NCBI GenBank assembly: GCA_964291285.2
Contig: OZ219785.1
Location: 448,001-512,000, forward strand
Length of the DNA stretch: 64,000 nucleotides
Source: Alphaproteobacteria bacterium
GTDB lineage: Bacteria; Pseudomonadota; Alphaproteobacteria; Bin95
Direction of reading: 5' to 3'
Shown: one piece after another, positions 42,356 through 59,790 of the stretch
How the letters are laid out: each line of letters opens with the position of its first letter
Position numbering within the stretch: the first letter of the stretch is position 1
Notes under the pieces: model-generated
Seen by the model: the letters and a program-made list of their open reading frames with translations, nothing else
Databases searched by the model: none
Told to the model about the DNA's origin: nothing
Translations under genes and position numbers: made by a program

Positions 42356-42387
42356 AACGCGCTTGCCCCCGGCTTGTCAAAACCGGC
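42350..42387 (+). repeat. 38-bp direct repeat, right copy (contains the ATPase stop codon)
   Basis: GCATGAAACGCGCTTGCCCCCGGCTTGTCAAAACCGGC. Confidence 0.9.
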
Positions 42388-42402
42388 TACGATGGCCCCG
42401 TC

Positions 42403-43122
42403 ATGGCGATGCTCGAAGTCGAAATCTGGCGCGGGGAGGGCGGCGGCGGCGCCTGGCGGCGCTACGCCGTGCCGCACGAGGCCAACCAGACCGTGCTCGA
42501 CGTGGTGACGCATGTGCAGCGCTATCTGGACCCCTCACTCGCCTACCGTTTCGCCTGCCGGGTGGGCATGTGCGGCTCCTGCGCGATGACCGTCAACGGC
42601 CGCCCGCGCTGGACCTGCCGCACCCATGTCTCGCAGGCCGCGCGCAAGGGCCGGGTGCGGATCGGGCCGCTGCGCAACCTGCCGGTCATCAGGGACCTCG
42701 CGGTGGACATGGCGCCCTTCTTCGAGAAATGGCGCGACGCGGAGGCGCGGTTCGTGCCGCCGCCCGCGCCTGCCGAAGAAGCCGTCCGGCCGGACGAGCC
42801 GGGACGCATGGCCGCCGACGCCGGCATCGAGTGCATCAACTGCGCCGTCTGCTACGCCGCCTGCGACAGCGTGGCCTGGAACCCGGACTATCCGGGCCCG
42901 GCCGTGCTGAACCGCCTCTGGACGCTGGTGAACGACCGGCGCGACGGCGACCGCGACGGCCACCTGGACGCAGCCGGGGCGGGCTGCCACCTCTGCCGCA
43001 GCCACCAGGAATGCGCCGACGCCTGCCCGACCGGCCTCAACCCGACGGCCGCCATCGCCGGCCTGAAGCGCGAGGTCTTCCGCCGCGCGCTCGGCGGCGG
43101 CGCGCGGGGTCCGCGCCGATGA
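42403..43122 (+). CDS. Succinate dehydrogenase/fumarate reductase-like Fe-S subunit
   Basis: CRVGMCGSC..C, CINCAVCYAAC, CRSHQECADACP; LPVIRDL.VD. Confidence 0.88.
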   Translation: MAMLEVEIWRGEGGGGAWRRYAVPHEANQTVLDVVTHVQRYLDPSLAYRFACRVGMCGSCAMTVNGRPRWTCRTHVSQAARKGRVRIGPLRNLPVIRDLAVDMAPFFEKWRDAEARFVPPPAPAEEAVRPDEPGRMAADAGIECINCAVCYAACDSVAWNPDYPGPAVLNRLWTLVNDRRDGDRDGHLDAAGAGCHLCRSHQECADACPTGLNPTAAIAGLKREVFRRALGGGARGPRR

Positions 43123-43445
43123 ACGAGGCCTGGCTGTTCGCGGCGCAGCGCCTCTCGGCAATGGTGATGGCGCCGCTGGTGCTGCTGCATCTGGGGGTCA
43201 TCCTCTATGCCGTCCGGGACGGGCTTTCCGCCGAGGAAATCCTGGCGCGCACCGAGGGCAGCCTGTTCTGGGGCGCGGTCTACGGGCTGTTCGTGCTGGC
43301 CGCCGCCGTGCATGCGCCCATCGGGCTGCGGGCCGTACTGAGGGAGTGGGGGCGCTGGCGGGGCGCAGGCCTGGACATCGCCATGACGATGTTCGGCCTC
43401 GTGCTGCTCGCGCTCGGCCTGCGCGCCGTGGCGGCCGTGCTGTGA
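43119..43445 (+). CDS. Complex II-like membrane anchor subunit
   Basis: QRLSA..M..LVLLH, H..IGLR, three hydrophobic helices; ATGA overlap. Confidence 0.78.
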   Translation: MNEAWLFAAQRLSAMVMAPLVLLHLGVILYAVRDGLSAEEILARTEGSLFWGAVYGLFVLAAAVHAPIGLRAVLREWGRWRGAGLDIAMTMFGLVLLALGLRAVAAVL

Positions 43446-43768
43446 AGCGCGGACCCTGGTGGGCCTTCCTGCTGCACCGGCTTTCGGGCGTGGCGCTGGC
43501 GGTCTTCCTGCCGGTCCACTTCCTCGTGCTCGGCCTCGCGGTGGAGCGCGCGGCGCTTGATCGCGTGCTCGACTGGACGGACAATCCGTGGGTCAAGCTC
43601 GCCGAGGCGGGGCTGGTCGTGTTGCTGGCGCTCCACCTGACGGGGGGCCTGCGCGTGCTGCTGCTCGAGTTCGGGCGCTGGTCCGACCGCCAGCGGTCGC
43701 GGATTGCGGTGGCGGGCGGGCTGGCGCTGCTCGCGGGCTTCGGCTTCCTGGCGGCGGCCTTCGCATGA
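43442..43768 (+). CDS. Complex II-like cytochrome b556 membrane subunit
   Basis: LHRLSG, FLPVH, H..GGLR.L; GTG start overlapping the previous stop. Confidence 0.78.
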   Translation: MKRGPWWAFLLHRLSGVALAVFLPVHFLVLGLAVERAALDRVLDWTDNPWVKLAEAGLVVLLALHLTGGLRVLLLEFGRWSDRQRSRIAVAGGLALLAGFGFLAAAFA

Positions 43769-45525
43769 TCGAGCGCCTCGACCGGGACATACTGATCCTC
43801 GGCTCCGGCGGGGCCGGGCTGTTCGCCGCGCTGCACGCCTACCGCGCCGACCCCGCGCTCGACATCGCCGTCGCAGCCAAGGGCCTGCTCGGCAAGAGCG
43901 GCTGCACCCGCATGGTGCAGGGCGGCTACAATGTGGCGCTCGCGCCCGGCGACAGCCTCGAACGCCATTTCATGGACACGATCGAAGGCGGGGCCTGGAT
44001 CAACCACCAGGAGCTGGCCTGGACGCTGATCGAGGGCGCGGTGGCGCGCATCCGCGAACTGGAAGACGAGATCGGCTGCTATTTCGACCGCAATCCCGAC
44101 GGCAGCATCCACCAGAAGGCGTTCGCCGGCCAGACCTTCGACCGCACCGTCCACAAGGGAGACCTCACCGGCATCGAGATCGTCAACCGGCTGATGGAGC
44201 AGGTCTGGGCGCGGGCGGTGACGCGGCTGGAGGAGCACCGGGCGGCGGCGCTGGTCCCCTCGCGCGACGGCTCCAGGCTCGCCGGCGTGCTGCTGATCGA
44301 CATTCGCACGGGCGTCCTGCGCTTCGTGCGGGCGAAGGCCGTGCTGCTCGCCACCGGCGGCGGCCCGACCATGTACCGCTACCACACCCCCTCCGGCGAC
44401 AAGACCTGCGACGGCATGGCGATGGCGCTGGAGGCGGGCCTGGCGCTGCGCGACATGGAGATGGTCCAGTTCCACCCGACGGGGCTCTATGCCGGCCCCG
44501 GCACGAGGATGACCGGCACCGTGCTGGAAGAGGGCTTGCGCGGCGCCGGCGGCCACCTGCTCGGCGGCGACGGCGCGCGCTTCATGGAGCGCTACGACGA
44601 CCGGCTGGAGCGCGCCACCCGCGACATCGTCAGCCGCGCCATGGCGAGCGAGATGCGTGCCGGGAACGTGACCGAAAACGGCGGGCTCTACATCTCGATG
44701 GCCCATCTCGGCCCCGCCTCGGTGGCCGAGCGCTTCAAGGGCATGGTCGAGCGCTGCCGGGACTGCGGCTTCGACCTCGCCGGCGGGCTGGTCGAGGTGG
44801 TGCCGACCGCGCATTACATGATGGGCGGCGTCGCCTTCGAGCCGGACACGACGACCGCCCTGCCCGGCCTCTACGCCGCCGGCGAGGACACGGGCGGCGT
44901 CCACGGCGCGAACCGGCTCGGCGGCAACGGCGTCGCCAACTCCACCGTCTATGGCGGCATTGCCGGCGACCGGATGGCGGCGGACGCGGCCCGCGAGCGC
45001 GCCTTCCCCGACCCGGACGAGGCGGTGCTGGAGGCCGCCGCCGCGCGCTGCCTGAGGGTCTTCGACCGGCCGCCCGGCGACCTCGCCGGCATCCGCGACC
45101 GGCTCGCGGACCTGATGTGGGACGAGGTCGGCATATTGCGCTCGGCCGGGAGCCTCGAGCGCGCCGAAGCCGGGCTCGCCGCGCTCGCGGCGGAGGTGGA
45201 GGCGGCCGGCGCGCCCGGCGGCCCTACCTTCAACCTCGCCTGGCACGACCGGCTGAACCTGGAAAGCCTCGTGACCGTCTCGCGCGCGATCACGGCGGCG
45301 GCCCGCGCCCGCGAGGACTCGCGCGGCGCACACTACCGCGAGGACTTCCCCGAGACCGGAGACCTCGCCGCCACGCGCTATACCGCCGTGCGTCTGGAGG
45401 ACGGCGAATTCGCCTCCGCTTCGGAACCCGTCGCCTTCACCCGCGTCAGGCCCGGCGAGTCGCTGCTGGACCAGGCCCCGGGACAGGCCGCAGGTCCACC
45501 GGCGGAGCATGATCGTTCAGGTTGA
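43765..45525 (+). CDS. SdhA/FrdA/NadB-family flavoprotein (non-canonical)
   Basis: GSGGAG, DMEMVQFHPT, EGLRG.GG, RDIVSRA, HYMMGG, HGANRLGGN, R.DSRGAH.R.DFP. Confidence 0.88.
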   Translation: MIERLDRDILILGSGGAGLFAALHAYRADPALDIAVAAKGLLGKSGCTRMVQGGYNVALAPGDSLERHFMDTIEGGAWINHQELAWTLIEGAVARIRELEDEIGCYFDRNPDGSIHQKAFAGQTFDRTVHKGDLTGIEIVNRLMEQVWARAVTRLEEHRAAALVPSRDGSRLAGVLLIDIRTGVLRFVRAKAVLLATGGGPTMYRYHTPSGDKTCDGMAMALEAGLALRDMEMVQFHPTGLYAGPGTRMTGTVLEEGLRGAGGHLLGGDGARFMERYDDRLERATRDIVSRAMASEMRAGNVTENGGLYISMAHLGPASVAERFKGMVERCRDCGFDLAGGLVEVVPTAHYMMGGVAFEPDTTTALPGLYAAGEDTGGVHGANRLGGNGVANSTVYGGIAGDRMAADAARERAFPDPDEAVLEAAAARCLRVFDRPPGDLAGIRDRLADLMWDEVGILRSAGSLERAEAGLAALAAEVEAAGAPGGPTFNLAWHDRLNLESLVTVSRAITAAARAREDSRGAHYREDFPETGDLAATRYTAVRLEDGEFASASEPVAFTRVRPGESLLDQAPGQAAGPPAEHDRSG

Positions 45526-45675
45526 AACAGCAGGGGCACGCCCCCGCATCTCCGCCCGGAAGCCCGGACTCGCACCCGGCCGGGACATGACATCGTACGG
45601 CCCGCCCCACGGTCGGTCCTGTCTTGCCGCCTTTCCGGTCTTGGGGAAACCGCCCGCCTCTGTCACAATGTTCCG

Positions 45676-46707
45676 ATGACCCGTTCTTCCGCCAAGCGGT
45701 CGAGTTCCCGTTCTCTCGCCAATCTCGCTCCGGACGAAGTGAAATCCGTGGTGGACGGTTACACGGCGATTTACGACGCCGGAGAGCAGGGCAGAAGAGA
45801 GCAATACCGCTCGCTCGTAAATCACTATTACGACCTGGTTACCGACTTCTACGAATTCGGCTGGGGCCAGTCCTTTCACTTCGCGCCAAGGCGCCGGGGC
45901 GAGAGCTTCAAGGCTTCGATGGTCAGGCACCAGCATTATCTCGCCGACCGGCTGGTCCTGAAGCCGGGCATGCAGGTGCTCGATGTGGGATGCGGGGTCG
46001 GCGGACCGATGGGCAACCTGGCGCGCTATTCCGGCGCCGGCTTCGTCGGCATCAACAACAACACCTACCAGATCGAACGCGCGAAACATCACACCCGGGA
46101 TGTCGGGTCGCGGTGCCGCTTCATCCACGGCGACTACATGCGGATTCCCGAAGGCGAGGATTGCTACGACGCCGCGTTCGCCATCGAGTCCATGCCCCAC
46201 GCGCCGGACAAGGCAGGCGCGTTCCGCGAAATCCTGCGCGTCCTGCGCCCCGGCGCCTGTTTCGCGGGTTACGAGTGGTGCCTCACCGATGATTTCGACC
46301 CCGAAAACGCGGAGCACCAGCGGATCAAGAACGAGATCATGGTTGGGGATGCGCTGCCGGAAATCGCGTCCATGCCGGAGATTTGCGACGCATTGCGCAC
46401 CGCCGGGTTCGAGCTGCTGGAAGCCAGGGACCGCGCCCCCGAGTCGGATCCGCAAACGCCCTGGTACCGCGCCCTGCAGGGCCGCGACTTCACGCTTTCG
46501 AGCATCCCGCGCACGCCTTTCGGCCGCGCCCTCACCAATCAGACGCTGCGGGTCGGAGAGAGGCTGCGGCTGTTTCCTGAGGGCTCCCGCGCGGTCAGCA
46601 CGCTGCTGAACGCGGCGGCCGACGCGCTGATCGAAGGCGGCAGGTCCGGCATCTTCACGCCGATGTTCTTTTTCCTGGCCCGCAAGCCTCCGCGCTCCGG
46701 CGACTGA
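45676..46707 (+). CDS. smt: Sterol C24-methyltransferase (ERG6/SMT family)
   Basis: YYDLVTDFYEFGWGQSFHFA (SMT region I), LDVGCGVGGP, IESMPHAP, LRPG, YEW, PWY, GIFTPMF. Confidence 0.9.
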   Translation: MTRSSAKRSSSRSLANLAPDEVKSVVDGYTAIYDAGEQGRREQYRSLVNHYYDLVTDFYEFGWGQSFHFAPRRRGESFKASMVRHQHYLADRLVLKPGMQVLDVGCGVGGPMGNLARYSGAGFVGINNNTYQIERAKHHTRDVGSRCRFIHGDYMRIPEGEDCYDAAFAIESMPHAPDKAGAFREILRVLRPGACFAGYEWCLTDDFDPENAEHQRIKNEIMVGDALPEIASMPEICDALRTAGFELLEARDRAPESDPQTPWYRALQGRDFTLSSIPRTPFGRALTNQTLRVGERLRLFPEGSRAVSTLLNAAADALIEGGRSGIFTPMFFFLARKPPRSGD

Positions 46708-46742
46708 ACGCCGCGCGTCCTCGGCCGCAGGGCCGCCGGCGC

Positions 46743-49700
46743 TCAGGACAGGGAACGGGCGGAAGCCGCTTCCGGCAGGGGCGGCACCGACGCGCCGGCG
46801 CAGGCAGCAGGGGCGGCGAGGTTCAACCGGTCCCGGCGGCGGCGCTCATAGAGGCTGAGCGCATGCAGCGGGAAATACTGCCGGTAGAGCACGTAATCCA
46901 GGAGCGCCGTCCGGAAGAACACGCCGGCCATGTTCTGTTTGGGCCACCCCCCTTCGGCGTCCTGCGTGTCGAGCAGGAACCGGGCGCCGCGCGACACCGC
47001 GGCCCAGTTCGAGTCGCCCGCCTCGAGGAGCGCGATCAGCGCCCACGCGGTCTGGATGACCTGGCTCTCGCCGTGCGGGACATAGCGGCCGGTCAGGCAG
47101 CCGCTGTGGTGCTCGCCCCATCCTCCGTCTTCCCGCTGGCGTTCCAGCAGCCAGCGGCAGGCCGAGCGCAGCGCCGGGTCGCCGGGACGGGACCCGGCGG
47201 CAAGAAGGCCCCTGATGCCGAACAGGGTGCCGTAAATGAACTGGACGCCCCATACGCCGCGCCAGGAGCCGTCCATCGCCTGCGTCCGGCGCAGCCAGGA
47301 TTCGGCCCGGGAGACGGCGCCCGCCGCGCCGTCCGCGATCTCCGGAAACCGCTCCCTGCACGCGGCGAGCGCGGCGAGGCAGGATGCCGTGCATTCCACA
47401 AAGGAATGCTCCGTCATCGAGTCGCCGAACATCTCGGCCGGATTCAGCCACTCCAGGCCGAAAGCCGAACGCCGCGCCTCATAGCTGCCGAAGCCGCCGT
47501 CGCGGTTCTGGCCGCGCAGCATGAAGGCGACCGCATCGCCGAGCGCCGCCCTGTCGGCGTCGCCGCCCCGTGCCGCGATGAGTCCGAGCACCGCCTCCGC
47601 CGTGCAATCGCTCACCGGCCAGCCATGCCACCCGCCCGCAAAGCACCAGCCGCCCCTGGGGTCGGTTCGATAGGCTTCGCGAAACCCTTCGAAGCTCGTA
47701 TCGATCTGCTCGCCCAGCAGGAAACCGGCGCCGCGCGCGAGCGCGTCCCCGACCCCGGCGGGCTCGGGCAGCGCCGCCAGCGCCTGCAGCGCGAACCCCG
47801 TGTCCCAGGAGGCGCTTCTCGCTCCGGTGACGCGCGCGCCCTCTTCCTCGTCTTCCCAGATCCAGCCGTCCAGCTGCGCGAGCGCCTGCCGGCAGTCGGC
47901 GTCGTCCGGATCGTGCAGCCACAGCGCAAGGATGTTGAGAAGGCCGCTGACCGGGGAGATGCTTGTGTGGCTGGTGGTCTGCAGCTCCCACCTGATGCGC
48001 CCGACAATCGCATCCGTGCATCGCGCGCGGAGGCGCCTGCCGTGAACCCGCTCGAACAGCCGCGCCAGCCCGTATCCGGCCCTGAGCCAGAGGCCCGGCC
48101 TCGCATACAGGTCGGCATCCCGCAGGCGACCCCGGGCAGCGGAGAAGTCAACGCCGGCAAAGCCCTGCGGGAACAGCTCCTCCCGCAGCGATTCGATCAG
48201 CGGCGTGACGGGCGCCTGGAACCGGCGCGCGTAAATCGCCGCCATCGCCATGTAGATGAGCCGCGTGTGGCAGTACCAGTTCGAGGGGTGCAGCGGTATC
48301 CGGCGCGGCAGGCTCCACAGTTCCGGCAGAACCGCGTTCACCCCGCGCCAGTCATAGAGGTTGAGGAGCGCCAGCCAGAATTTTCCCCAGCTCGGAATGC
48401 CGAGAACCCCCTCGGCCTGCAGGAACCGCCGGGCCGGCTCGACCAGGGGATCCTCCCGCCCGACGCCCAGCAGCCTCGCCGCGACATAGACGAGTGCGGT
48501 GACGAACAGGTGAGGCGGCGAGTGCTCGTGCAGGCCCCATGCGCCGCCCTCGAGCCGGGTCCGCTCGAAGGAGCGCAGCACACGCCGGCGGCGGCCCGGT
48601 TCCAGCGGCCGTCCGATTAGATGGTGCAGCAGCGCATATTGCGCGGTGAGCATGGGGCACCAGACCATCTCGCCTTCCCACGCGCCGTCCTCTCTCTGGA
48701 GGCTCAACAGGCGCGCGGCCGCGCTCTTCAATGCCGGACCGGCATCGGGCGATTCGACCTCCTTCGAGCGGGCGGGCCTGGAGGCCTCGCCTCCGGAAGG
48801 CATGGAGTACAGGAACGCGCGGGCCAGGCTGTCCCGGGTTTGCCTGCTTTCTTCCCGGCCCTCGCGACTCGCCTGCCGGAGCTGCCGGACACCGCGCTGG
48901 AGCCACCAGAGGCGAACGGCGAGCGCATTGAAGATGGTCCGGGTCCGATGCGAAGCGAACCGGCGGAAGGAGAACGGAATCTCCCGGGTCAGCGCCCGGG
49001 CCACCGTTCCGCAGAATGCGAGGGTCATGCCGGTCGCGGACCGGTCCTCGCAGGCGAGTATCCGCGTGGTCCGGTCCCGGTACGCGGAATTCGCCCGCCA
49101 GCCCCGGTAGATCGCGGATCTGAGGACCACCGCTTCCACGCGATGATCGGCGAAGACCTCGTAGAGCCCCATTGCGAGGAACTCGGGAATGCGGGTCGCC
49201 CGGAAGCGTTCGGCGGCGAAGTCCCGAAAGCGCTCGTTCTCGGCGAGCGTCAGCGCATCGCCGAACCCGAGTGTCATGCCGACCGCCGTCATGGGATGAT
49301 AGTGCCCGGCGGCGTCGCCGATCAGCACCCGGCGCGGGCTCAGCTGATTGGCCGCCGCATGGAATTGGCCCGCCCGCAACGCCTCGACGAAGGCCGGCCC
49401 GAGAGCCCCCGGCAGCAGCCCGGCGCAGGATTCCGACAGGAAGGCAATCCGGTCCCGGGGCGTCCAGCGGTCCAGCGGAAGATCGACGATGACCCGGACG
49501 CAGCCGTCCGCCAGGCCGTATATGAGGATCGGACCCGGCCCGCCCAGCACCACATGCCCGTAGCCTTCGAAGGGCAGGTCCGCCCCGCCTATGGTGACCC
49601 CCAGCATCCGCGAGCAGAGCATCGGGTCCGTGGAGAGACCCAGCGACTGGCGCACGATCGAGGCCCGGCCGTCGGCGCCGACGACGCGCGCGGCGGTTAT

Positions 49701-50144
49701 GGAGCGCTCATCGCCGCCAACGGAAAAGGCGACCCGCCCGTCATCGACCGCATTGACCCGCGCGTGGGAAATGAAATCGACGCCGGCTTCGTCCGCGATG
49801 GCGTCGCGGAGGCTCGAGACGAGCAGCGCATGGTCGCATGCCAGGCCCCGGGACCCGTCCGGATAGGGAAGCAGGATCGGCTCCGAGCCGTCCTCCGGAA
49901 ACACCACGAATCCCTTGCCCGGCGTGGCTCCGGGCAGCCGGTCCGTGTCTATCCCGATGTCGCGCAATATCCTGACGGCCGGCGGATGCAGCCACTCGCC
50001 GGCCAGGCGCGCCGATGCCCTGGGATTGGCTTCGAGCAGGGCCACCCGGGCGCCCTTGCGCGCATGGGCGAGCGCGCAGAGGCTCCCCACCGGGCCCGCG
50101 CCGACAATGGCTGCGTCGTAAGGCCGCCCGGCGGCACCGCTCAT
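46743..50144 (-). CDS. Squalene epoxidase-oxidosqualene cyclase fusion protein (1133 aa)
   Basis: N-terminal GAGPVG, GEWLHP, GADG..S.VR, GDAAGHYHPMTAVGMT (SQE-like). C-terminal QW repeats, IPSWGKFWL, WYCHTRLIY, HGWPVSDCTAE, WGVQFIYGT (OSC). ATGA overlap with the P450 stop fixes the start. Confidence 0.9.
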   Translation of the reverse strand: MSGAAGRPYDAAIVGAGPVGSLCALAHARKGARVALLEANPRASARLAGEWLHPPAVRILRDIGIDTDRLPGATPGKGFVVFPEDGSEPILLPYPDGSRGLACDHALLVSSLRDAIADEAGVDFISHARVNAVDDGRVAFSVGGDERSITAARVVGADGRASIVRQSLGLSTDPMLCSRMLGVTIGGADLPFEGYGHVVLGGPGPILIYGLADGCVRVIVDLPLDRWTPRDRIAFLSESCAGLLPGALGPAFVEALRAGQFHAAANQLSPRRVLIGDAAGHYHPMTAVGMTLGFGDALTLAENERFRDFAAERFRATRIPEFLAMGLYEVFADHRVEAVVLRSAIYRGWRANSAYRDRTTRILACEDRSATGMTLAFCGTVARALTREIPFSFRRFASHRTRTIFNALAVRLWWLQRGVRQLRQASREGREESRQTRDSLARAFLYSMPSGGEASRPARSKEVESPDAGPALKSAAARLLSLQREDGAWEGEMVWCPMLTAQYALLHHLIGRPLEPGRRRRVLRSFERTRLEGGAWGLHEHSPPHLFVTALVYVAARLLGVGREDPLVEPARRFLQAEGVLGIPSWGKFWLALLNLYDWRGVNAVLPELWSLPRRIPLHPSNWYCHTRLIYMAMAAIYARRFQAPVTPLIESLREELFPQGFAGVDFSAARGRLRDADLYARPGLWLRAGYGLARLFERVHGRRLRARCTDAIVGRIRWELQTTSHTSISPVSGLLNILALWLHDPDDADCRQALAQLDGWIWEDEEEGARVTGARSASWDTGFALQALAALPEPAGVGDALARGAGFLLGEQIDTSFEGFREAYRTDPRGGWCFAGGWHGWPVSDCTAEAVLGLIAARGGDADRAALGDAVAFMLRGQNRDGGFGSYEARRSAFGLEWLNPAEMFGDSMTEHSFVECTASCLAALAACRERFPEIADGAAGAVSRAESWLRRTQAMDGSWRGVWGVQFIYGTLFGIRGLLAAGSRPGDPALRSACRWLLERQREDGGWGEHHSGCLTGRYVPHGESQVIQTAWALIALLEAGDSNWAAVSRGARFLLDTQDAEGGWPKQNMAGVFFRTALLDYVLYRQYFPLHALSLYERRRRDRLNLAAPAACAGASVPPLPEAASARSLS

Positions 50145-51550
50145 CGGAAAACGCTCGGCTCCACGCGGCGGCGGTAGCGGACCCGGCACGGCGTCTCGGG
50201 CCCCGTCACCCAGCTGCCGTAATTCGGGCGTGGAAACTTCGGCCCGGCGACGAAGTCGAAGCGGTCGAGCAGAACCGTCCAGATCGCCTTGAGCTGCATA
50301 TAGGCGAAATTCTTGCCCATGCACGCATGTTTGCCGCCGCCGAAGCCGATCAGGGCGTAATGATGTTGCCTGTCCTCGCTGGCGGGCGGCGCGAAACGGT
50401 CCGGGAAGAACCGCTCCGGATCGGCGAAAACCCGGGGCAGGCGGTGGGAAACCGCCGGCGACACCATGGCCATGGTGCCGGCGGGCACGACACTGCCCCC
50501 GTAACGGAGCGGTTCGAGCACCTTCCGGATCAGCAATATCAGCGGCGGGTGCAATCGCTCGCATTCGCGCACGGCGTTTTCCATCGCCGGCTGGCGCTGA
50601 AGGCTGTCGAGGCTCATCGACCCCGCTTCGCGGTAAACCTCCCGCGCCTCCTCCCTCAACCGTGCCAGGTAGGAGGGCGTCCTGAAGAGCTCCAGGCCGG
50701 TCCAGGTCGCGAGCACCGCGCTGGTGTGCTGGCCGGCGAACAGCACGGTCAGCAGGATCCCCGTGATCTCGTCGTTGCTGAGCGCACGGCCGTTCTTGTA
50801 GCGCGCATTCATGAGCGTTTGCATGAAGTCGTCGGGACCGGCCCCGGCATTGCGGCGCGCCGCCATGATTCCACCGAAGAGCTCCGCCACCTTCCGGCGG
50901 GCCCGGTCGCGGCTTCGATGCGCCGGGGTGGGAAGTCTGGGAAGGAAGAATCCGAGCGTGTTGATGCCCTTCTGCAGGTCGTGGTAGGCCTCGGCGAAGC
51001 CGGTATCCACCCGGTCGCGAACCTCCTGCCCGATCAGGCAGCGGCTGGCGATCCTGACGGTGAGCTCGTTCATCGCGTGCGGCAGGTCGATTTCGCCCTC
51101 CCCGCCGAGGGCGTCGGCGAAAGCGCTCGCCTCCTCGAACATGATGAGGGCGAATTTCCGCATGGCGGCTTCGCGGAGCGCGGGAAACAGGAACCCCAGC
51201 TGCTCCGCCATGATTTCCGGCGAGGTGTCATAGGCCACGCCGCGCCCGAAGACGGGCACGGTGAAGCGATAGACCGCCTTGGCGTTCAACTGGGTCTCGG
51301 GCGCCCTGAAATAGAAGTCGTGGGCTTCCGGCCCGGTGAAGAGAACGAAGTCGCGAAGTCCCAGCCTGAAGCGGAAAAGGTCGCCATGCCGGCGCCAGCC
51401 GCGGCTCAGCATGGCGACCGGGTCCCGCTGAAATTCCCTGAGATGGCCGATCAGCGGCCAGCTGCCCGCCAGTTCCGGAACGGGCGCCTCCGACGGCGGC
51501 GGGAGGTCCGCGGACTGCAGCGTCGCCATGCTGTGAGACCGGTTCGCCAT
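50141..51550 (-). CDS. cyp51: Sterol 14-alpha-demethylase (cytochrome P450 CYP51)
   Basis: Y.F..PVFGRGVAYD, AGQHTS I-helix, ECERLHPP, FGGGKHACMG heme motif. Confidence 0.9.
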   Translation of the reverse strand: MANRSHSMATLQSADLPPPSEAPVPELAGSWPLIGHLREFQRDPVAMLSRGWRRHGDLFRFRLGLRDFVLFTGPEAHDFYFRAPETQLNAKAVYRFTVPVFGRGVAYDTSPEIMAEQLGFLFPALREAAMRKFALIMFEEASAFADALGGEGEIDLPHAMNELTVRIASRCLIGQEVRDRVDTGFAEAYHDLQKGINTLGFFLPRLPTPAHRSRDRARRKVAELFGGIMAARRNAGAGPDDFMQTLMNARYKNGRALSNDEITGILLTVLFAGQHTSAVLATWTGLELFRTPSYLARLREEAREVYREAGSMSLDSLQRQPAMENAVRECERLHPPLILLIRKVLEPLRYGGSVVPAGTMAMVSPAVSHRLPRVFADPERFFPDRFAPPASEDRQHHYALIGFGGGKHACMGKNFAYMQLKAIWTVLLDRFDFVAGPKFPRPNYGSWVTGPETPCRVRYRRRVEPSVFR

Positions 51551-51558
51551 CCCCGTCC

Positions 51559-52659
51559 TCAATGGATGAACGGCAGCATCGAGAAGCGCGCCCGCTGCGT
51601 GTAGCGCTCCCACAGCTCGCCATATTTGGCGCGGCAGCGGCGCTCATCGCGTCTCGAGCGGTGCCACAGGAGACCCGCCAGCCACGCGGGCAGCAGGTAG
51701 GGCCCCCAGGATGCGAGCCCGGTGGTCAGCGCGAAAGCGAGATAGATACAGATCTCGCCGGTATAGTTGAGGTGCCGTCCGATACCCCAGAATCCGGAGA
51801 CCAGGAGGCGCCCGTCCAGGGTCCGGGCGGGTTGCCCCCAGATCCTGATATCGGGGTCGCGCTTGAAGCGGTGCTTCTGCTGGTTGGCGCCGCGGAAGAG
51901 CCAGAAGCCGAAGGCGAACAACAGGACGATGGCCGCCGCGGCGGCCGGAGACAACGGGTCCGGCGCGTGAACCAGCCACCAGCCGGGAAGGCAGTAGAAG
52001 AACGGCACCAGCACGTAGTCGCCCCAGACCAGCATCCATCCGAAGCGCTCGCTGATGATGTCCCAAGTGTGGATCATGCCGTGCTCGAACTGGAAGTAGT
52101 TGAGCACGTAGAGGAAGGTGAACGCCTGATAGAGCGCCATCGCCAGGGTAAGCTCGCCATAGGTTTCCCACTGCACGACGGCGAAGGAGGCGTTGACGAG
52201 CGCCAGACCGATGAGCGAGGGGCGGTAGCTGAAGAGCTTCAGGTCGATCCCGAACCAGACCGGGCCGGCATCGACGCCGCCGAAATAGCCCCGCCAGAAT
52301 CCCGGCGCCGCGCCGGGCGCCCGCATCCCCCGCCAATACAGCCAGCCGGCAAGGGCGAAGGCGAAGGCGTTCGCCGCCACGAACAGGGCGGCGAAGTGGG
52401 TGTAGAGCACCGAAAGGGAGAACCAGCCGAGGAACTGGGCGAGGCCCGCCGCGAGCGCGGCGATCAGGAAGAGCGCGAGGCCGTTCAGCTTGTAGATGCG
52501 CTCATTGCCCTCGGCGTCCGGCCCCGCGATGCGGCGGCCGGGAAGGAGCATCGAACCCAGGAACAGCAACGCGACGAACGCCAGCGCCATTGCCGCCGCT
52601 TCGAGCAGCGCTCCGCCCGACAGCGCGGACGACAGGAGGAACGCTTCAGGCGGGGACAC
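51559..52659 (-). CDS. Sterol reductase, ERG24/ERG4/DHCR7 family (probably C14-reductase)
   Basis: YKLNGL, DLKLF..RP, TWDIISERFGWMLVWGD, FRGANQQK..FK, LLVSGFWG.GRHLNY.GE, HR..RDE.RC..KYG..W. Confidence 0.9.
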   Translation of the reverse strand: MSPPEAFLLSSALSGGALLEAAAMALAFVALLFLGSMLLPGRRIAGPDAEGNERIYKLNGLALFLIAALAAGLAQFLGWFSLSVLYTHFAALFVAANAFAFALAGWLYWRGMRAPGAAPGFWRGYFGGVDAGPVWFGIDLKLFSYRPSLIGLALVNASFAVVQWETYGELTLAMALYQAFTFLYVLNYFQFEHGMIHTWDIISERFGWMLVWGDYVLVPFFYCLPGWWLVHAPDPLSPAAAAAIVLLFAFGFWLFRGANQQKHRFKRDPDIRIWGQPARTLDGRLLVSGFWGIGRHLNYTGEICIYLAFALTTGLASWGPYLLPAWLAGLLWHRSRRDERRCRAKYGELWERYTQRARFSMLPFIH

Positions 52660-53731
52660 CGCCGTCCCCGGACCCGCGGGCCAGAGTTTCCCGCCACTTG
52701 CGCACCGTCACTTCCTGAAAGGCCCTGACCACGGGATTGAACTCGACGGGGCGGGCGTCCCAGTGTTTCTCGTAACCCTCTTGCTCCGCTTCGAGCGCGA
52801 ACCGGTCCTGGTCGAGCAGGGGGGCGATCAGCATACGGTTGGAGATCTTCATGACCGCGGTCATGGCGAAACGCGGAATGCGCACCGGCAGGAACGGAAT
52901 TTTCAGAGACTTGAAATAGAACAGGAAGAACACCCGGGTGGTGCGCTCGTCCATGGGCAGCACGAACAGCCAGTGCTTGATTGCGTCATCGGTGTTCGAC
53001 CACTGGTAGGGATATTCGTAGCAGAGCTCCATGCGGTTGGTGTTGAGCCGCTCGTGGTCCACGAACAGTCCTGAAATGCGCCCGCGCCCGACCCGGGTAT
53101 CGTAAGCGAGATGCACATTGTCCCCGACGGTTTCGCAGGAGGCGAGCGTGGCTCCGTCGAAGGGCCGGTAGCGGCGGTGCAGATGCGCGTGGGTGAAGTC
53201 GCTCACATTGTCGATCACCATCGAGTGGTGCGCCGACCACGTGAAGCGCAGCGGCACGCAGGTCCAGCGCCCGGGCCCCTCCAGTTCGGGAATCTCCGGG
53301 ATCCGGTGCTGTTCCGCCTGCTCCGGGTCGCCGGGGAAGAGCCACACCAGCCCGTAGCGGACCTTTACCGGGTAGGTCTTGAGCGCAAGCCGCGGAAAGC
53401 TCCGCCCGTTGCCGTCATAGGGAACCCCGGCGGGCCGTTCCCTGCCGCCATATTCCCAGCCGTGATAGGCGCACACCAGCCGGCATCCCTCCACATGGCC
53501 GATGGAGAGCTTGAGCTGGCGGTGCGCGCAGCGGTTCTCGATCGCCTGGAACGAGCCGTCCGTTCCCCGGAACAACGCAATCGAATGTTTCCAGAAGACG
53601 ACCTCGACCACCGTCCCCGGCTTGACCCGGCGCACTTCCTCGACCGCATACCAGTAATTCGGGTCCATGCCCGCGGCGCGCGCCTGCTGGCGGAGCGTGC
53701 CGGCCTCCTCGAAGCAGGGCGGCGGCCTCAT
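52646..53731 (-). CDS. Rieske non-heme iron oxygenase (SdmA-like, candidate sterol C4 oxidase)
   Basis: CAHR...CAYHGW Rieske cluster, NVSDFTHAHLH Fe site; located inside the sterol operon. Confidence 0.8.
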   Translation of the reverse strand: MRPPPCFEEAGTLRQQARAAGMDPNYWYAVEEVRRVKPGTVVEVVFWKHSIALFRGTDGSFQAIENRCAHRQLKLSIGHVEGCRLVCAYHGWEYGGRERPAGVPYDGNGRSFPRLALKTYPVKVRYGLVWLFPGDPEQAEQHRIPEIPELEGPGRWTCVPLRFTWSAHHSMVIDNVSDFTHAHLHRRYRPFDGATLASCETVGDNVHLAYDTRVGRGRISGLFVDHERLNTNRMELCYEYPYQWSNTDDAIKHWLFVLPMDERTTRVFFLFYFKSLKIPFLPVRIPRFAMTAVMKISNRMLIAPLLDQDRFALEAEQEGYEKHWDARPVEFNPVVRAFQEVTVRKWRETLARGSGDGGVPA

Positions 53732-54888
53732 GTCGCGCTCCCGCCGGGCACCGCATGCAAGCCCTGGCGCGGCGCGGGAGGTTCCGCCTCTCTCGCCGCG
53801 CGTTGCTCCGGGGCGTCGGCGCGCGGCGGTTTCGCGGACGGATTTACGATCGCGTTGCGGCCGTGGTGGAACGCGTAGGCTTCGTGAACCGCGTCGCGGA
53901 TGCCGGTCGGCCGGTAGCCGAGCTCGCGCTGCGCCTTGCCGGTGTCGGCATGGCGGCGCTTTTTCAGCAGGCGTATGGCGCCGGGGGTGAAACGCTGGGG
54001 AAAGTCCGGGTGGAAGCGGCTCAGGTAGGAGCTCGCCACTTCCGAAAAGGCGAGCATCAGGGGCGCCGGAATCCGCCGGCGCGGCCTCGGGACGCCCGAG
54101 ACCTCCTCATACAGGCCCACGATCTCCGAGATGGTCTTGTACTCGCTGCTGAAGATGTATTTCTCGCCCGAGCGGCCATGATGCATGCACAGCAGGTGCC
54201 CCTCGACAATGTCGCGCGCCGCGACGAACTCGAACCCGCCATCGATATAGGCATGAAGCTTGCCGTTGGTGTAGTCGCACAGGGTCCTTCCCAGCCGCGA
54301 GGGCAGATAGTCGGCGCCTCCCACCACCGCGCAACAGGTCGCGACCACGACATCCTGCCCCGTGGCCGCCGCGCGCCAGCATTCCTGCTCAACCAGCGAC
54401 TTGCTGCGCTCGTAGGGCATCGTGCGCTCCATGGGATAGAACGGCATCGTCTCGTCGCTGGGCGCGGACGGATCGTCCGGATCGTAACCGACCGCGCTGA
54501 AGGAGCCGGTTACGACCACGCGCCCGGCCTCGGCCTCCCGCGCCGCCTGCAGCACGTTGCGGGTGCCGCGAACATTGCACTCGAACAGCTCCCGGCGATG
54601 GGCGCGGTTGCCCCCGACGGTCGAGATCTTGGCCGCGACATGATAGACGCCCTGACATCCGGCGAGCGCCTGCCTGGTGGCATTCAGGTCCCGGATGTCG
54701 CCGAACACGCGCTCCACATCGAGGCCTTCCAGCGCCTCATTATTGTCCTCATGCCTCAGCAACACCCGGACCCGCACGCCGTCGTCGAGCAGCCGGCGCA
54801 CGAGATTGGCGCCGACATGTCCGGCCGAACCGGTAACGAAAACGGGCGGCATCGACGAACCCGCCGGCATGCTCGACCGGGACGTCAT
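53728..54888 (-). CDS. Extended SDR / 3-beta-HSD-like (SdmB-like, candidate C4 decarboxylase/reductase)
   Basis: VTGSAGHVG, YHVAA, NVRGT.NVL, YERSK; first gene of the sterol operon. Confidence 0.78.
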   Translation of the reverse strand: MTSRSSMPAGSSMPPVFVTGSAGHVGANLVRRLLDDGVRVRVLLRHEDNNEALEGLDVERVFGDIRDLNATRQALAGCQGVYHVAAKISTVGGNRAHRRELFECNVRGTRNVLQAAREAEAGRVVVTGSFSAVGYDPDDPSAPSDETMPFYPMERTMPYERSKSLVEQECWRAAATGQDVVVATCCAVVGGADYLPSRLGRTLCDYTNGKLHAYIDGGFEFVAARDIVEGHLLCMHHGRSGEKYIFSSEYKTISEIVGLYEEVSGVPRPRRRIPAPLMLAFSEVASSYLSRFHPDFPQRFTPGAIRLLKKRRHADTGKAQRELGYRPTGIRDAVHEAYAFHHGRNAIVNPSAKPPRADAPEQRAAREAEPPAPRQGLHAVPGGSAT

Positions 54889-55320
54889 CGCAGCCGCGTT
54901 CCGCTAAAGGGAACGGTGAGCCAGTCTAGTTCCGCGAGACGGGGACGGAGTCTTGCCGACAATGCCGCTCACTCACCGGCCGGTATCGCAACGGCAAGCA
55001 TATCGATTCGAATCCGCGCCTGTTTGCACTCTGAAATATCGCGGGTTCTTCATGCCTATACCTCACATCTTCGAGAAGACCACGGTATCGGCCGACCAAT
55101 ATGAAACCAGACGCCACAAAGCGTATCGAAATTTACCTGATTGTCAAATGCAACATGCCTATAACGCTCACCATTCGCCCGGAAAGCGAACGCCCGACCC
55201 GGGAAACCCCCTTGCGTCATCCCGGCCTCAGTCCGCCCCGGCGCCCGGAGCGGCCCGGGCGCCATGCCGAGCACATGAAAAAGCCCTCGAAAACTTCAAT
55301 GTTTCCAATGGCTTTCAGTA

Positions 55321-55363
55321 GTTTCGGGGGCAGGATTTGAACCTGCGACCTTCAGGTTATGAG
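55321..55363 (-). other. 3' half of tRNA-fMet (att-site remnant, not an intact tRNA)
   Basis: Minus strand CTCATAACCTGAAGGTCGCAGGTTCAAATCCTGCCCCCGAAAC: anticodon loop, T-arm and a degenerate acceptor strand. The 5' half is absent. Confidence 0.85.
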
Positions 55364-55459
55364 ACCCGTCTTTATCTTGCGGCCACGCGCGGCCACCGAG
55401 TTCTTTTCTCGTGTTGATCGTTGTGTCGACGGATTTTCCGGCGATCTTACAATGGCGGC

Positions 55460-56600
55460 ATGCCAGAAAAACCCGGAAAACGCGTCGCCAGGGTGCGCAC
55501 GACGATTACCAGGCGGGCCGTCGAGGCGTTCCAGCCGGGCACAAGCCCTGGATCTCCTAGGACGACAAGCTGACCGGTTTCGGCGTTCGCATCCAGCCAA
55601 CGGGGACCAAGGTCTTCCTCGTCAACTACCGCGCCGGCGACGGTGGGCGGAAGCGCCCAACAAGCGGGTCGCGATCGGTTACTACGGCAAGGTCACCGTC
55701 GAGCAGGCCCGGAAGCTGGCCCAGAACCTGCTCGGCCAGGTCGCCGGCGGCGCCGGTCCCGCCTATGAACGTGCCAAGGCGCGCGCGATGCCCACCCTCG
55801 GCGAGGCCTTCGAAGAGTACATGGCGGTCAATCCCAACCGTTCGAAACGGACCGGCGAGCTCTACCGTTACGAGGCGAACCGCTACCTGGGCGACTGGCT
55901 CACGCGCACTCTCGACTCCATTGCCCGCCGGGATGTCGAGATGAGGTTCAACAGCATCACCGCGGACCATGGATGGTCACCGGCCAACCGGGCAATTTCA
56001 TTGCTGCGCTCCGTCTATCGCCGGCCCTGCGTCGACTACGAAGGGCTGCGTCCCCCTGGAGCTTCCGACCACCCGGCAACTCGCGGTCATTCTCGAGCGC
56101 CGGCAGGCCGAGGCCGGCGACTACCCGGTCGAGGCCCGCGGCTGGGCGTTCCCCTCGCGCACCGCCGCCACCGGCCATGTTCAGGACCCGGATCACCTCT
56201 AATACCAACGGTCGTTGATTGGAACCTATAGCAGAGCCTCCCTCCGCAGCTCGCCCCCTGAGCCGAGGCCTCCTACTGCAAGAGGTAATCTCCGCCGAGA
56301 GAGGCTAATCGGTTCTTATCTGTGGCCGGTGGTATAAGCCCGCATCGGCAAGACCGGCGGCACCAAGTTCTGGTTCCACGGGCTGCGGAACAGTTTCATC
56401 ACCGTGGCCGAGCGCGAGCTGATGCTGCCGCCCTCACTGGCCAAGCGGCTGGTCAACCACGCCCGGCCCAACGATGTCACCGAGGGCTATGCGGCCGACT
56501 GGACCATCGCGCAGCTTCGGGAGCCGGCTCAGAAGATCGCCGACCGGATCGAGGTCTTGACCCGAGAGCCGCAAGCTCCCTGGCCAGTGCCCGCGGCAAC
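55460..56600 (+). pseudogene. Decayed tyrosine integrase (arm-binding domain type)
   Basis: Fragments across frames: TITRRAVEA, DDKLTGFGVRIQPTGTKVFLVNYR, VEQARKLA, PTLGEAF, GWAFPS, FHGLRNSF, LVNHA..DVTEGY. In-frame TAG, frameshifts and an internal insertion. Confidence 0.85.
56202..56335. mobile_element. About 134-bp MITE-like insertion inside the integrase
   Basis: Short imperfect IRs ATACCAACGGTCG / TGGCCGGTGGTAT. Removal brings 'DPDHL' next to 'ARIGKTGGTKFWFHGLR'. Confidence 0.55.
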
Positions 56601-56659
56601 TCGGCTGAGGCTGTCGGAACTCTCGAACCGTACCGCGAGCCATCGCTGCGGCCGTGCCC

Positions 56660-59600
56660 CTACCACCGCACCGAGCCCCTGAGCGTCGCGCCGTGCTCGG
56701 CCGGATCGGCGGCGCTCTTGCTCCGCGTGCCTTCGAGACCCAGGCTCACATTGGGCGCGAGGTTCCAGCGCGCGCCCGCGCGCCACGTGCGCGCGTCGTC
56801 CCCGGCCAGCCCGAGCGCCGCATAGGGCGTCAACACCCCGAGGCCCGCCGGGCCGCCGAGCCCGTAGCCGACCTCCGCGTCCAGGCGGCTCGACAGCTCC
56901 GCATTGTCGTTCGCGGCCAGCGCGTAAGCGTCCGGCATCGTCCACAGCCGCTCCGAGCCGCCCGCGTCCGCCCCCCAGGACGGCGTGAGCGACAGCGTCA
57001 GGCCGCGCCCCTCGCCGCCCGGCTCGAGCCTGAACGAGCCCGACACGCCCCATTCGCGGTAGCCGTCCCCGGCGTGCCCCGCAAGACCGTGCACGCGAAG
57101 CGCCATGTCCAGGCCCCGCGACGGGTCCGCGTAGCCGACACCGGCGCCGAGCTCCATGCCCCTCCCGGTCTCCGCGTCGCCCCCGTCATGGCGCACACCG
57201 AGCGCCACCGACGGCGTCAGGGTGCCGCCCGCGAGCGCGAACGTCCGCGAGCCGTCGAGCACCGCCCGCACCCGGCTCGCATCGGCACGCGCGCCCGCGA
57301 GGTTCCCCGCGCCCGGCGCAGACACCGCCTCCGACTCCGTGCGCACCCAGAACGCATCCGCCTTCAAGGCCAGCGCGAACCCGCCCGCCTCGGCGGGCGT
57401 CACCAGCTCGCCCCGCACGCCCGCCGCCGCCAGCGTCATCGACAGGTCGGCGGCGTAGCGCTCCGCCGCGCCGCCGTCGAGGTCCAGCGTCAGTTCGCCG
57501 GAGCCCGTGCCCGCCAGACCCCACGCCGACACCCGCTCCGAGAGCGCGAGCCGCGCATAGGGAAGCATCGTCGTGACCGAACTCCCCATCAGGTAGCTCC
57601 GCTCCGCTCCATGCGCCGTGCCCTCGGCGAGGCTGTGCGTCATCGCGAACCCGGTCAGCAGGCGGCCATACTCGTAGTCCATGCCCATCGCCCCGGTCGC
57701 CGACTCGCCGCTCAGACTGAGCCCGGGAACGGCGCCCGAGAACCGCGACACCGACGCGCTCTGGCCCCAGCTCGTGAACTGCGACCCCGCGCCCTGCCCG
57801 AGCACCGCGCGGAACGACGTCCCCATCAGCAACGCGCGCGCGTCCATCGTCCGCGACGTGCCCGCGTCCGGGTCCTCCGACCAGGCCAGCCAGTCCGCGC
57901 TACCCGCCGGCGTCGGCGGCAGTCCGGCGCCGGAGCCGTCCAGCGACAGGCGATGTCCGCCCAGCGTCACGTGCGAGCCCGCCTCGCGCGGCGTCTCCAG
58001 GCGCGCCGTCACCGCCGCGACGGTGTCGGACGCCACCGTGCGCCCGAAGCGCGCGAGCCACGCAGCCGGTATCGGGTCGCTGTTCTGGATCGTGCCCGTC
58101 GCCTGGGCCCGGCCGATGTCGATGGTCTTCGATGCGTCGTTGCACAGCTCCGCGTTGCTGATCTTGACCTTCACCGTCTCCCCGGGGTCGTTGATAGCGT
58201 CATCCAGGATGTATACAAACTCGGTCCACTCGGTCACCCCGGCCTGCTGCCACAGCGTCGACTTCGGGCGCGCCAGGAAGTCCTCCCCCTCGGTCGCCGT
58301 GCCCGTGGTGAGCGTCTCGAAGTCGTAGCAGACATTGTCTTCGAGCGGCCGCGACAGCGTGACGGTGAAGTGCATGAAGCCGTTGCGCTCCCGCATGCTC
58401 GTGTCCTCGATGCGGAGGTTCACGTTCGGCACCGCCGTCGTGCTGGTCGTCGGCGCATCGATCGTCCCCGTCGCTTCGGCCGTGGTGATCGTCAGCGGCC
58501 CGAACGCCGTCCCGCGGTCGGTGACGACCCGCGCATTGCTTATCTCCACCTTCACCGTCTCGCCCGCGTCGCTCGCGGTATCCTCGATCAGCCCTACCGG
58601 GGCCGCCACGGTCGTCTCCCCCGGCCGGATGAACTTCGTCGTATCGACGACCGGGCGGTAATCGGCGTTTGCGGTGGCGGTGCCGCCCGCAATGGTCCTG
58701 TAGTCAAACGCGATGCGCGACTGCGTGGCCCGCGACAGGGTGACGTCGAAATTGAGAACGCTGGTGTCCTCGGTTGCGCTCGCGTTTGCGATCGAGAGGC
58801 TCGGCAGGTTGCTGCCGTCGAACGGGGCCGTATCGGGGGTCAGGGTCAGCACCGGCGGGCTGGTGAGCTGAACCGTCCCGTCGCACAATGCGCCCTGCTC
58901 GCTGCAGGGGCGGTTGCCCCGCAGCGTGACGGTGACGGGCTTCGTCTCGTCGTCGGCGACCGCCGTCATGCGCCAGTGGTTGCTGTAGAGGCGCTGCTGC
59001 CCCCCCTCGGTCCTGCGGTCCTTGTGGATGCGCTTCGCCTCGGCCATGTACCCGTTCGTCACGCTGAAGGCATGATCGCGCATATCCTGGAACGGAATCG
59101 CCACGGCCTCGGACAAGGTGAGCTCGAACCGGTAGAACAGGTTCCGCCCGACGAAGGATTCGGGAGAGGCGAGCGTCGCCGTGAAGTGCGACAGGACGCT
59201 GCCCTTCACGTTCATCCTGATGGAATTAGGGCCGGACCTGTTTCCGCTAAGCCGGTAAGAGTCTTCGATCGACCATCCTTCGGCGCCCGTCTGGGCATCG
59301 CTGCCAAGAATACCTAGTTGCAAATCGGCCCCGTCGTTGCCTGTGCTAACGAAATTCACCAAATACCTGGTATTCGGAAGTAATAAGGCGCCCTGAAGTT
59401 TCTTACTCCATTCCCATTCAGCGGAGACGGAGTGCTCAGCGTGGCCACCAGATCTCCCACTTTGTTGGGAGCGCTGTTGTCGAACCTGTGAATCGACACC
59501 GTAACCGTCTCGCCACTCGAAAAGTAGTTCCGGTGAATGTGGAGCCCAACGGAACTCACCTCGTAGCCCGCGGCGTTCCCGGTGTTGAATCCCTGCGTCA

Positions 59601-59790
59601 GTCTGCCGGACGACAGGACTCCAGCCGTCACAGCGTTGGTGCGAGATTGGCCTGTATTGCTGACGAGCGTCGTCTGCGCATGGGCCTCCTGGGGCAGGGC
59701 CCACAGCGCGGCGAGCAGCACGAGCGCAAGGCCGGCGCCCGCGCGCGGCGCAGCGCCCAAATGCAGCTTCCCGACAGGGATCGCGGCCAT
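56660..59790 (-). pseudogene. Autotransporter adhesin with Calx-beta-like domains, frameshifted near 59390
   Basis: Signal peptide and 'AHA|QTTLVSNTGQ' domain in ORF 59356..59790. Continues in another frame (LLPNTRY...) with two Calx-beta-like repeats, 'AWLARFGRTVA' linker and a beta-barrel ending in W. Confidence 0.8.

Follow-up and report, generated by a model that had tools for sequence, protein, structure and literature searches.

We analysed a 64,000-nucleotide stretch (the window) of the genome of an Alphaproteobacteria bacterium (GTDB Bin95; GenBank assembly GCA_964291285.2, contig OZ219785.1, positions 448,001 to 512,000 of the forward strand), which contains a six-gene sterol biosynthesis cluster at 45676..54888. 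On homology, we consider it likely that this is a copy of the mobile sponge-symbiont sterol cluster, of the type published as msb or CSG, in an alphaproteobacterium, and that its squalene epoxidase (SQE) is probably impaired in this strain. The cluster is real and already known in kind. New at this locus are an epoxidase deletion private to the strain, with intact alleles in sister strains, the prediction from sequence that isopropyl products are not made, and the high frequency of lesions across the genus.

Every architectural feature of the msb/CSG type tested was present in the window: the core size, the upstream short-chain dehydrogenase/reductase (SDR) and Rieske pair, the sterol methyltransferase (SMT) on the opposite strand, and the epoxidase and oxidosqualene cyclase (OSC) in one polypeptide. 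The features tested and absent were a propylating SMT and an intact epoxidase segment. A genome collection contained 592 stretches matching a pattern and 396 encoding a relative; we kept the best 80 (69-95% identity) and scored a gene as present at >=60% identity and 80% cover. Of these 80 loci, across several phyla, 63 have all five operon genes and 49 have the SMT as well. As the same five genes occur together in 63 loci, their grouping is not due to chance. The fused gene stands alone in 12 loci, two of them at a contig start.

A deletion in the squalene epoxidase

SQE (approximately amino acids (aa) 1-450) and OSC (approximately aa 470-1105) are encoded by a single open frame of 1133 aa, which matched two human enzymes, LSS (E 3.6e-130) and SQLE (E 3e-24). 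An earlier reading of this DNA (the original prediction) named both families correctly but overlooked a gap of seven residues between aa 268 and 269 (the closest relatives have RPRVTYG here), immediately before the strand leading into the GD motif that binds flavin adenine dinucleotide (FAD). The deletion is in frame, comprises 21 bp and is flanked by short direct repeats, which would fit an origin by slippage. The segment is full-length in 80/80 loci, with its Y and G invariant in all of them. Its length is kept in eight of the nine fused 50%-cluster representatives in which the motif was found (one close, eight at ~50-60% identity), and the ninth is longer. An intact homologue aligns to human SQLE without gaps across the deleted segment.

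An 11,169-nt contig of run X1, possibly the source sample, is identical to window 45500-55329 (0 differences) and extends past its left end. This contig, with a depth of 141.7, carries the deleted form, and no X1 contig has the 21 letters. They are present in contigs of runs X2 and X3, in which the listed pieces otherwise differ from the window by 0-1 letters. The deletion is a recent strain-level change; contigs drop rare alleles, and a minority intact SQE allele in X1 could be hidden. The original prediction had named a chimeric contig as a risk. The agreement with the X1 contig argues against one, and the locus is not chimeric as far as tested.

AlphaFold2 modelled the deleted SQE at a mean confidence (pLDDT) of 73.0, which fell to 36 over aa 271-280, and gave it no strand ahead of the GD motif; the model of an intact control (L029) had a mean of 77.8, with 66 in the same region and a strand at E279-281. 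From the alignments and models, the deletion is predicted to impair or abolish epoxidation, which we somewhat favour over retained activity. De novo sterol synthesis is doubtful in this strain because the deletion lies next to the GD motif. With the queries used, no SQE or cyclase besides the fused gene was found in the source genome (G000). The claim that the organism could make sterols from squalene thus keeps the support of the genes and of a squalene synthase-family gene, but the private deletion makes this capacity uncertain.

Predicted pathway and products

In the proposed pathway, squalene would come from an unlinked FDFT1-like synthase, and the fused protein would epoxidise it with FAD and O2 and cyclise the product to lanosterol. 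CYP51 would then take off the 14-methyl group, the ERG24-type enzyme would reduce the 14(15) bond, SdmA and SdmB would take off one or both C4 methyls, and the SMT would put one carbon, perhaps two, on C24. Since no isomerase was found, the expected end product is a Delta8 24-methylene sterol (fecosterol or a 4-methyl form), which may serve the bacterium's own membrane. We infer all activities and products from homology and published papers.

The pathway logic of the original prediction holds on family and motif matches, and all six genes were located at the coordinates it gave, with strands and families borne out by profile and PDB matches (Table 1). It had described an overlapping or abutting minus-strand operon with a convergent SMT. 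This layout was confirmed: sdmB/sdmA and cyp51/SQE-OSC each overlap by ATGA, sdmA and erg24 overlap by 14 nt, erg24 and cyp51 lie 8 nt apart, and 35 nt separate the stops of the convergent SQE-OSC and SMT. The CYP51 start was placed at ATG 51550, 3' of a GAGGA motif, with ATG 51529 as an alternative. The co-oriented ERG24-CYP51-SQE-OSC core (52659-46743) measures 5917 bp. Promoter and terminator scans gave nothing usable (one promoter-like site vs 0.9 expected; nine terminator-like sites vs 6.4 +/- 2.7 expected).

Table 1. Positions of the cluster genes and associated features in the window
Feature	Position	Strand	Match or remark
sdmB-type SDR (C4 decarboxylase / 3-ketoreductase)	53728..54888	-	NF052578 SdmB is best NCBIfam model
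sdmA-type Rieske oxygenase (C4-methyl oxidase)	52646..53731	-	NF052579 is best NCBIfam model
ERG24-type sterol Delta14-reductase	51559..52659	-	PF01222 E 5.6e-69; 4quv E 3.6e-64
CYP51 sterol 14alpha-demethylase	50141..51550	-	Best PDB match bacterial CYP51 6mcw, E 3.4e-105
Fused squalene epoxidase/oxidosqualene cyclase SQE-OSC, 1133 aa	46743..50144	-	Human LSS and SQLE matches
Site of 21-bp in-frame deletion in SQE	49331..49341	-	Between aa 268 and 269
Sterol C24-methyltransferase SMT, convergent	45676..46707	+	PF08498 E 1.3e-21
att-like remnant: 39-bp copy of 3' part of tRNA-Met, upstream of sdmB	55325..55363	-	
Integrase fragment beyond the tRNA-Met remnant	55359-56231		PF13356 Arm-DNA-bind_3 E 4.4e-6

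The cyclase keeps D455 (DCTAE motif), H232, Y503, W387, W581, F444 and F696, and V453 is present in the window and in 80/80 loci. V453 tracked lanosterol in every bacterium tested by Wei 2016. Parkeol synthases are marked by L444, and arborinol synthases by S230, Y232, V or C503, and Y697 (PMC12324236). F444 is unlike the parkeol type, and an arborinol or eudoraenol cyclase was rejected on Y230, H232, Y503 and F697. As V453, F444, H232 and Y503 are kept, a lanosterol-type product is indicated. The cavity departs from human LSS at M98, Y230, A381, R382, H449, S524 and F697, each found in 77-80 of the 80 loci. Of the 150 representatives listed, the top 64 were examined; 50 of them aligned fully, and Y230, A381 and F697 each occur in 28-29 of these 50, among which are myxobacterial sequences. 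Shared this widely, these residues mark a broad bacterial OSC group, and the idea of an unusual cavity as a speciality of sponge symbionts was dropped.

The CYP51 motifs YxxxxPxFGxGV, AGQHTS, ExxR and FGGGKHAC, which were checked against an alignment to solved CYP51s, were all present, and the best PDB matches were CYP51s. SdmA has the Rieske ligands CxH...CxxH at 68 and the mononuclear-iron ligands DxxHxxxxH at 174-185; SdmB has the SDR motifs TGxxGxxG at 19 and YxxxK at 159. The same pairing of Rieske oxygenase and SDR is described for the SdmAB of Methylococcus capsulatus, Calothrix NIES-4105 and Enhygromyxa salina, and SdmBs of sponge clusters are nearer to that of Calothrix (52-54%) than to that of Methylococcus (43-45%). 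According to Lee 2023 (PMC10202945), the outcome of SdmAB differs by organism, with removal of one methyl, of both, or of none without SdmC. Only one sdmB-like gene was found in G000.

A preprint (Brown and Welander 2025) reports 25 residues conserved in working SMTs, Gly249 as necessary for C30 products, and the loss of C30 products in both enzymes tested, and of C29 in one, upon G249D; Gly249 with Phe81 and/or Phe83 is its signature of a propylating (24-isopropyl) SMT. The window SMT matches 25/25 of the conserved residues and has Y81, F83 and D249 in yeast numbering, with positions mapped through the motif spacings in the preprint rather than by yeast alignment (anchors 217 and 268 gave the same offset; the PDB holds no SMT structure for residue mapping). 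A propylating SMT was rejected on D249. The likely product is a 24-methylene sterol, perhaps with some ethyl, and the 24-isopropyl biomarker is not expected. The C24-alkylation of the original prediction is supported by the 25 residues, without the glycine reported as necessary for 24-isopropyl products. Of 55 close homologues in the loci, 31 have D at position 249, 22 have N, one has T and one has G (11 distant paralogues were tallied separately); by the Gly249 rule, 54 of the 55 are likewise predicted not to make this sponge biomarker. The single exception, in a Nitrospira-titled locus (L094:13519-14538), has F81, F83 and G249, the full predicted 24-isopropyl signature. The window SMT is 69% identical to that of locus L102.

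The source genome (6.1 Mb, five contigs, 100% complete, 4.77% contamination) has its 16S gene on the contig of the cluster. The original prediction noted that squalene synthesis genes were outside the window, and the genome search located a squalene/phytoene synthase-family gene on another contig (G000:C2:1270945-1272078); it has counterparts in 14 of the 17 genus genomes. Contig C4 has a second match, which is partial and HpnD-like. The suggested search for downstream isomerases and desaturases gave no ERG2, EBP or DHCR24-like gene in G000 (weak controls for EBP, a silent control for ERG2, one query for DHCR24), and the desaturase-like neighbour of other clusters was likewise not found. Two PF04116 genes in G000 matched OlsE best, below the cut-off, and were not assignable as a C5 desaturase or an alternative epoxidase. 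A 244-aa membrane protein without a Pfam or NCBIfam match, which adjoins the cluster in 30/80 loci (e.g. L098:14900-15634), is a candidate for the missing isomerase; it was not found in G000 and is present in two of the 17 genus genomes. G000 has one stand-alone ERG4/24 paralogue (L113:6558-7757, C4), 73% identical to a cluster neighbour in the Palauibacter-titled L071.

At least six MMPL-family transporter homologues were found in G000 by tblastn. At L114:5156-8747 (G000:C3, ~414-419 kb) lie an MMPL fragment, a LolA-like gene, a seemingly split GPP34-P450 fusion and a TPR gene, and the same families (MMPL, LolA-like, GPP34-P450, TPR) occur beside the sterol cluster in 29, 8, 31 and 11 of the 80 loci, respectively. 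They may form a possible module for sterol transport and modification.

Spread and decay of the cluster

Among the titles of the 80 loci are Alpha- and Gammaproteobacteria, Nitrospirales, Binatia, Acidobacteriota and Gemmatimonadota. Of the loci with a title, the closest bear the label Alphaproteobacteria, in agreement with the host guessed by the original prediction; the GcrA marker was detected in G000, but the control was also positive in Sulfolobus, and it is a weak taxonomic sign. Relatives occur in runs labelled sponge metagenome (shares 0.23-0.32, three studies; runs with shares <0.2, X19-X21 and X23, were not used for habitat), and several loci have sponge-symbiont names. Homology with the 12 loci compared is confined to the cluster and its immediate edges, and the flanks are not shared. 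The G+C content at third codon positions is 0.82-0.89 in the cluster vs 0.90-0.93 in two flanking housekeeping genes. The tRNA-Met remnant is 100% identical to C1:746138-746176, inside tRNA-Met, and homology with L019 stops at 55363; the remnant and the integrase fragment are likely the edge of a transferred unit. The remnant was found in just one of the 80 loci. ARAGORN detected no whole tRNA in the window and tRNAs in only two of 23 loci, which indicates no common tRNA integration site. A check by gene phylogenies had been proposed; the OSC tree (quick method, midpoint root, no clade test) has short branches between phyla and is consistent with transfer, with no formal test. The unshared flanks, codon composition and tRNA/integrase remnants fit horizontal spread, which Kelly 2022 also reports.

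An element of ~135 bp at 56199-56337, with many near-identical copies spread over all five contigs, is probably a miniature mobile element inserted in the integrase remnant; ~25 of the 35 blastn matches of the stretch 55364-56700 are to it. Directly left of the SMT lies a succinate dehydrogenase/fumarate reductase-like operon (42352-45525, +; Fe-S subunit, two small membrane open reading frames (ORFs), flavoprotein), which is not common to the cluster loci compared. On the other side lie a large Calx-beta protein with an autotransporter-like C-terminus (56660-59790, -), a LuxR-type regulator (59959-61305) and a subtilase-family ORF (62475-64000, -). Elsewhere, a single assembly titled Paracoccaceae has two loci, L077 and L078, whose OSC domains are identical and which lack the other operon genes.

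Of the genus genomes, 10/17 have all or part of the fused gene, vs 0/20 from other genera of the family; the genus loci are not independent of the 80 loci. Ten genus assemblies are near-complete (each in <=5 contigs) and seven are fragmented. Four of the near-complete assemblies lack the cluster and six have it or a remnant, with lesions in five of the six; G016 is intact. Besides the SQE deletion of G000, these are an inserted element in SQE with the other genes intact in G007 (L025:9224-11136; 1.9 kb, inverted ends, a 566-aa ORF, splitting the SQE domain), loss of erg24 and most of cyp51 and SMT in G008, a stop in SMT in G010, and broken remnants without a cyclase in G011. In the fragmented set, G006 has all six genes intact, no lesion was seen in G002, G009 and G014 within contig reach, and G001, G004 and G005 yielded fragments or nothing. 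Assembly errors may account for some of the frameshifts, and related genomes are not independent. As the lesions fall on different genes, the pattern looks closer to routine loss of a mobile unit that can be dispensed with than to a targeted loss of the first step. In this strain, the cluster may be in the opening stage of the decay that the genus shows.

Several results weigh against this reading of an impaired copy of the cluster. The deletion is in frame and leaves the GxGxxG, DG and GD FAD motifs intact, the deleted model still matches 6c6n (TM score 0.78) with human SQLE as its top three Foldseek matches, and the structural contrast is modest, the intact L029 model itself having a pLDDT <50 at 268-272 and 285-291. 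The remaining five cluster genes have no stop or gap. Model cut-offs were not reached by SdmB (NF052578, E 1.7e-87, 294 bits vs 600) or SdmA (NF052579, E 1.7e-120, 402 bits vs 600), the NCBIfam equivalog models being named for methanotroph proteins, nor by the cyclase (TIGR03463, 735.5 bits vs 851; the SHC model was far lower, at 264.6) or the squalene synthase-family gene (TIGR01559 best, 118 bits). Homology does not fix the C4 outcome, because the E. salina SdmAB alone gave no demethylation (PMC10202945). ERG2 searches of six genomes gave no match, and as no positive control gave a signal, absence is not shown. A fully active cluster making 24-alkyl sterols de novo, as originally predicted, with the deletion shortening a tolerant loop, is a serious if less probable alternative. 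It would accord with the intact motifs, fold and companion genes, the synthase elsewhere in the genome, and the deleted allele being the form in the long, deep X1 contig. It is opposed by a segment of unchanged length in 80/80 relatives and never shorter in the nine representatives, with an invariant Y and G, by its retention in sister strains, and by G007, in which an inserted element shows that SQE is disruptable in this genus. The position of the deletion between direct repeats, and X1 possibly being the same sample as the window, would suit an assembly error in an intact gene, which is extremely unlikely given a separately assembled contig with 0 gaps over 9.8 kb and the presence of the 21 letters in X2 and X3 but in no X1 contig.

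A cyclase product other than lanosterol is quite improbable. The cavity residues differing from human LSS are invariant or nearly so in the 80 loci, two of them, at positions 230 and 697, belong to the four sites that determine arborinol formation, and literature searches found no published assay of a fused SQE-OSC; yet three of these residues mark the broad bacterial group, positions 232, 503, 444 and 453 are of lanosterol type, and the linked CYP51 and ERG24 would suit a Delta8, 14-methyl substrate. The operon could also be a sterol-remodelling module with a dispensable epoxidase, acting on sterols or oxidosqualene from the host or other symbionts. SQE was struck independently in two genus members with the other genes intact (G000, G007), several MMPL homologues are present, and many co-occurring taxa have the same cluster. 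We regard this as distinctly unlikely, since lesions also affect SMT (G010), erg24, cyp51 and SMT (G008) and most genes (G011), and SQE-OSC is the gene left alone in 12/80 loci, as in untargeted decay. Host sterols mostly have neither C4 nor C14 methyls and would not serve as substrates. For the provisioning of the host suggested by the original prediction, nothing in this analysis offers support, and a supply of sterols to the sponge that includes the 24-isopropyl types is very improbable. Brown 2023 (PMC10070321) raises a symbiont contribution and reports that one such cluster encodes a propylating SMT, and contigs of relatives in run X22, an RNA library, span all six genes (not proof of transcription, as depth cannot rank genes and no silent control stretch was compared). 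The window SMT has D249, however, and G249D abolished C30 products in both enzymes tested; G249 occurs in one of 55 close homologues, the queries used on the genome gave no ERG2, EBP or DHCR24-like gene, the cluster is absent from four of ten near-complete genus assemblies, and Brown 2023 itself considers significant symbiont 24-isopropyl production in A. aerophoba unlikely. A bolder view, which we hold to be unlikely, is that this is a natural epoxidase-null strain beside near-isogenic intact strains, the cluster being shared, dispensable and repeatedly lost as neighbours or the host supply oxidosqualene or early sterols. If true, X1 vs X2/X3 would be a ready test of what a sponge symbiont gains from sterol synthesis and of whether members of the holobiont share metabolites.

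Comparison with published clusters

Gene presence may overstate capacity at this locus, with its probably damaged epoxidase and lesions in most near-complete relatives that have the cluster. The deleted and intact alleles form an easy pair for a first assay of the fused enzyme. Bacterial genes for 24-alkyl sterols blur sterane biomarkers; this point of the original prediction is important but was made for this cluster in 2020-2023. Hoshino and Gaucher 2021 describe steroid genes as nearly absent from Alphaproteobacteria generally, so the present host is unusual only outside sponges.

Melophlus sarasinorum has a gammaproteobacterial symbiont whose msbA-F locus (Mohanty 2020, PMC7074536) covers the same six functions, with a bifunctional MsbE and an unlinked squalene synthase. 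The msb SDR, Rieske protein, reductase, demethylase, fused epoxidase/cyclase and SMT correspond to those of the window (sdmB to msbA, sdmA to msbB, erg24 to msbC, cyp51 to msbD, SQE-OSC to msbE, SMT to msbF), and MsbE also has the lanosterol-type valine. The window differs from msb in its alphaproteobacterial host and the seven-residue SQE deletion. Brown 2023 lists sdmB, sdmA, ERG24, ERG11, SMO/OSC and SMT of sponge-metagenome clusters with consecutive gene identifiers, SMO and OSC sharing a single one, gives the fused SMO/OSC in its methods, shows that cluster SMTs work in vitro and makes the biomarker argument; its propylating SMT has G249, whereas the window SMT has D249.

CSGs were reported in 115/537 Ircinia metagenome-assembled genomes of 10 phyla, Alphaproteobacteria included, with gene trees in conflict with species trees (Kelly 2022, PMC9531527). 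They have the same ERG24-CYP51-LSS core (published mean 5910 +/- 74 vs 5917 bp in the window), a 'DFR' and a hypothetical gene upstream, of which the 'DFR' is the equivalent of the sdmB-type SDR, and a downstream gene on the opposite strand that is either SMT, as in the window, or FDFT1. The same study reports overall purifying selection (omega 0.13-0.26), in contrast to the genus of the window, in which lesions occur in five of the six near-complete assemblies that retain the cluster or a remnant of it.

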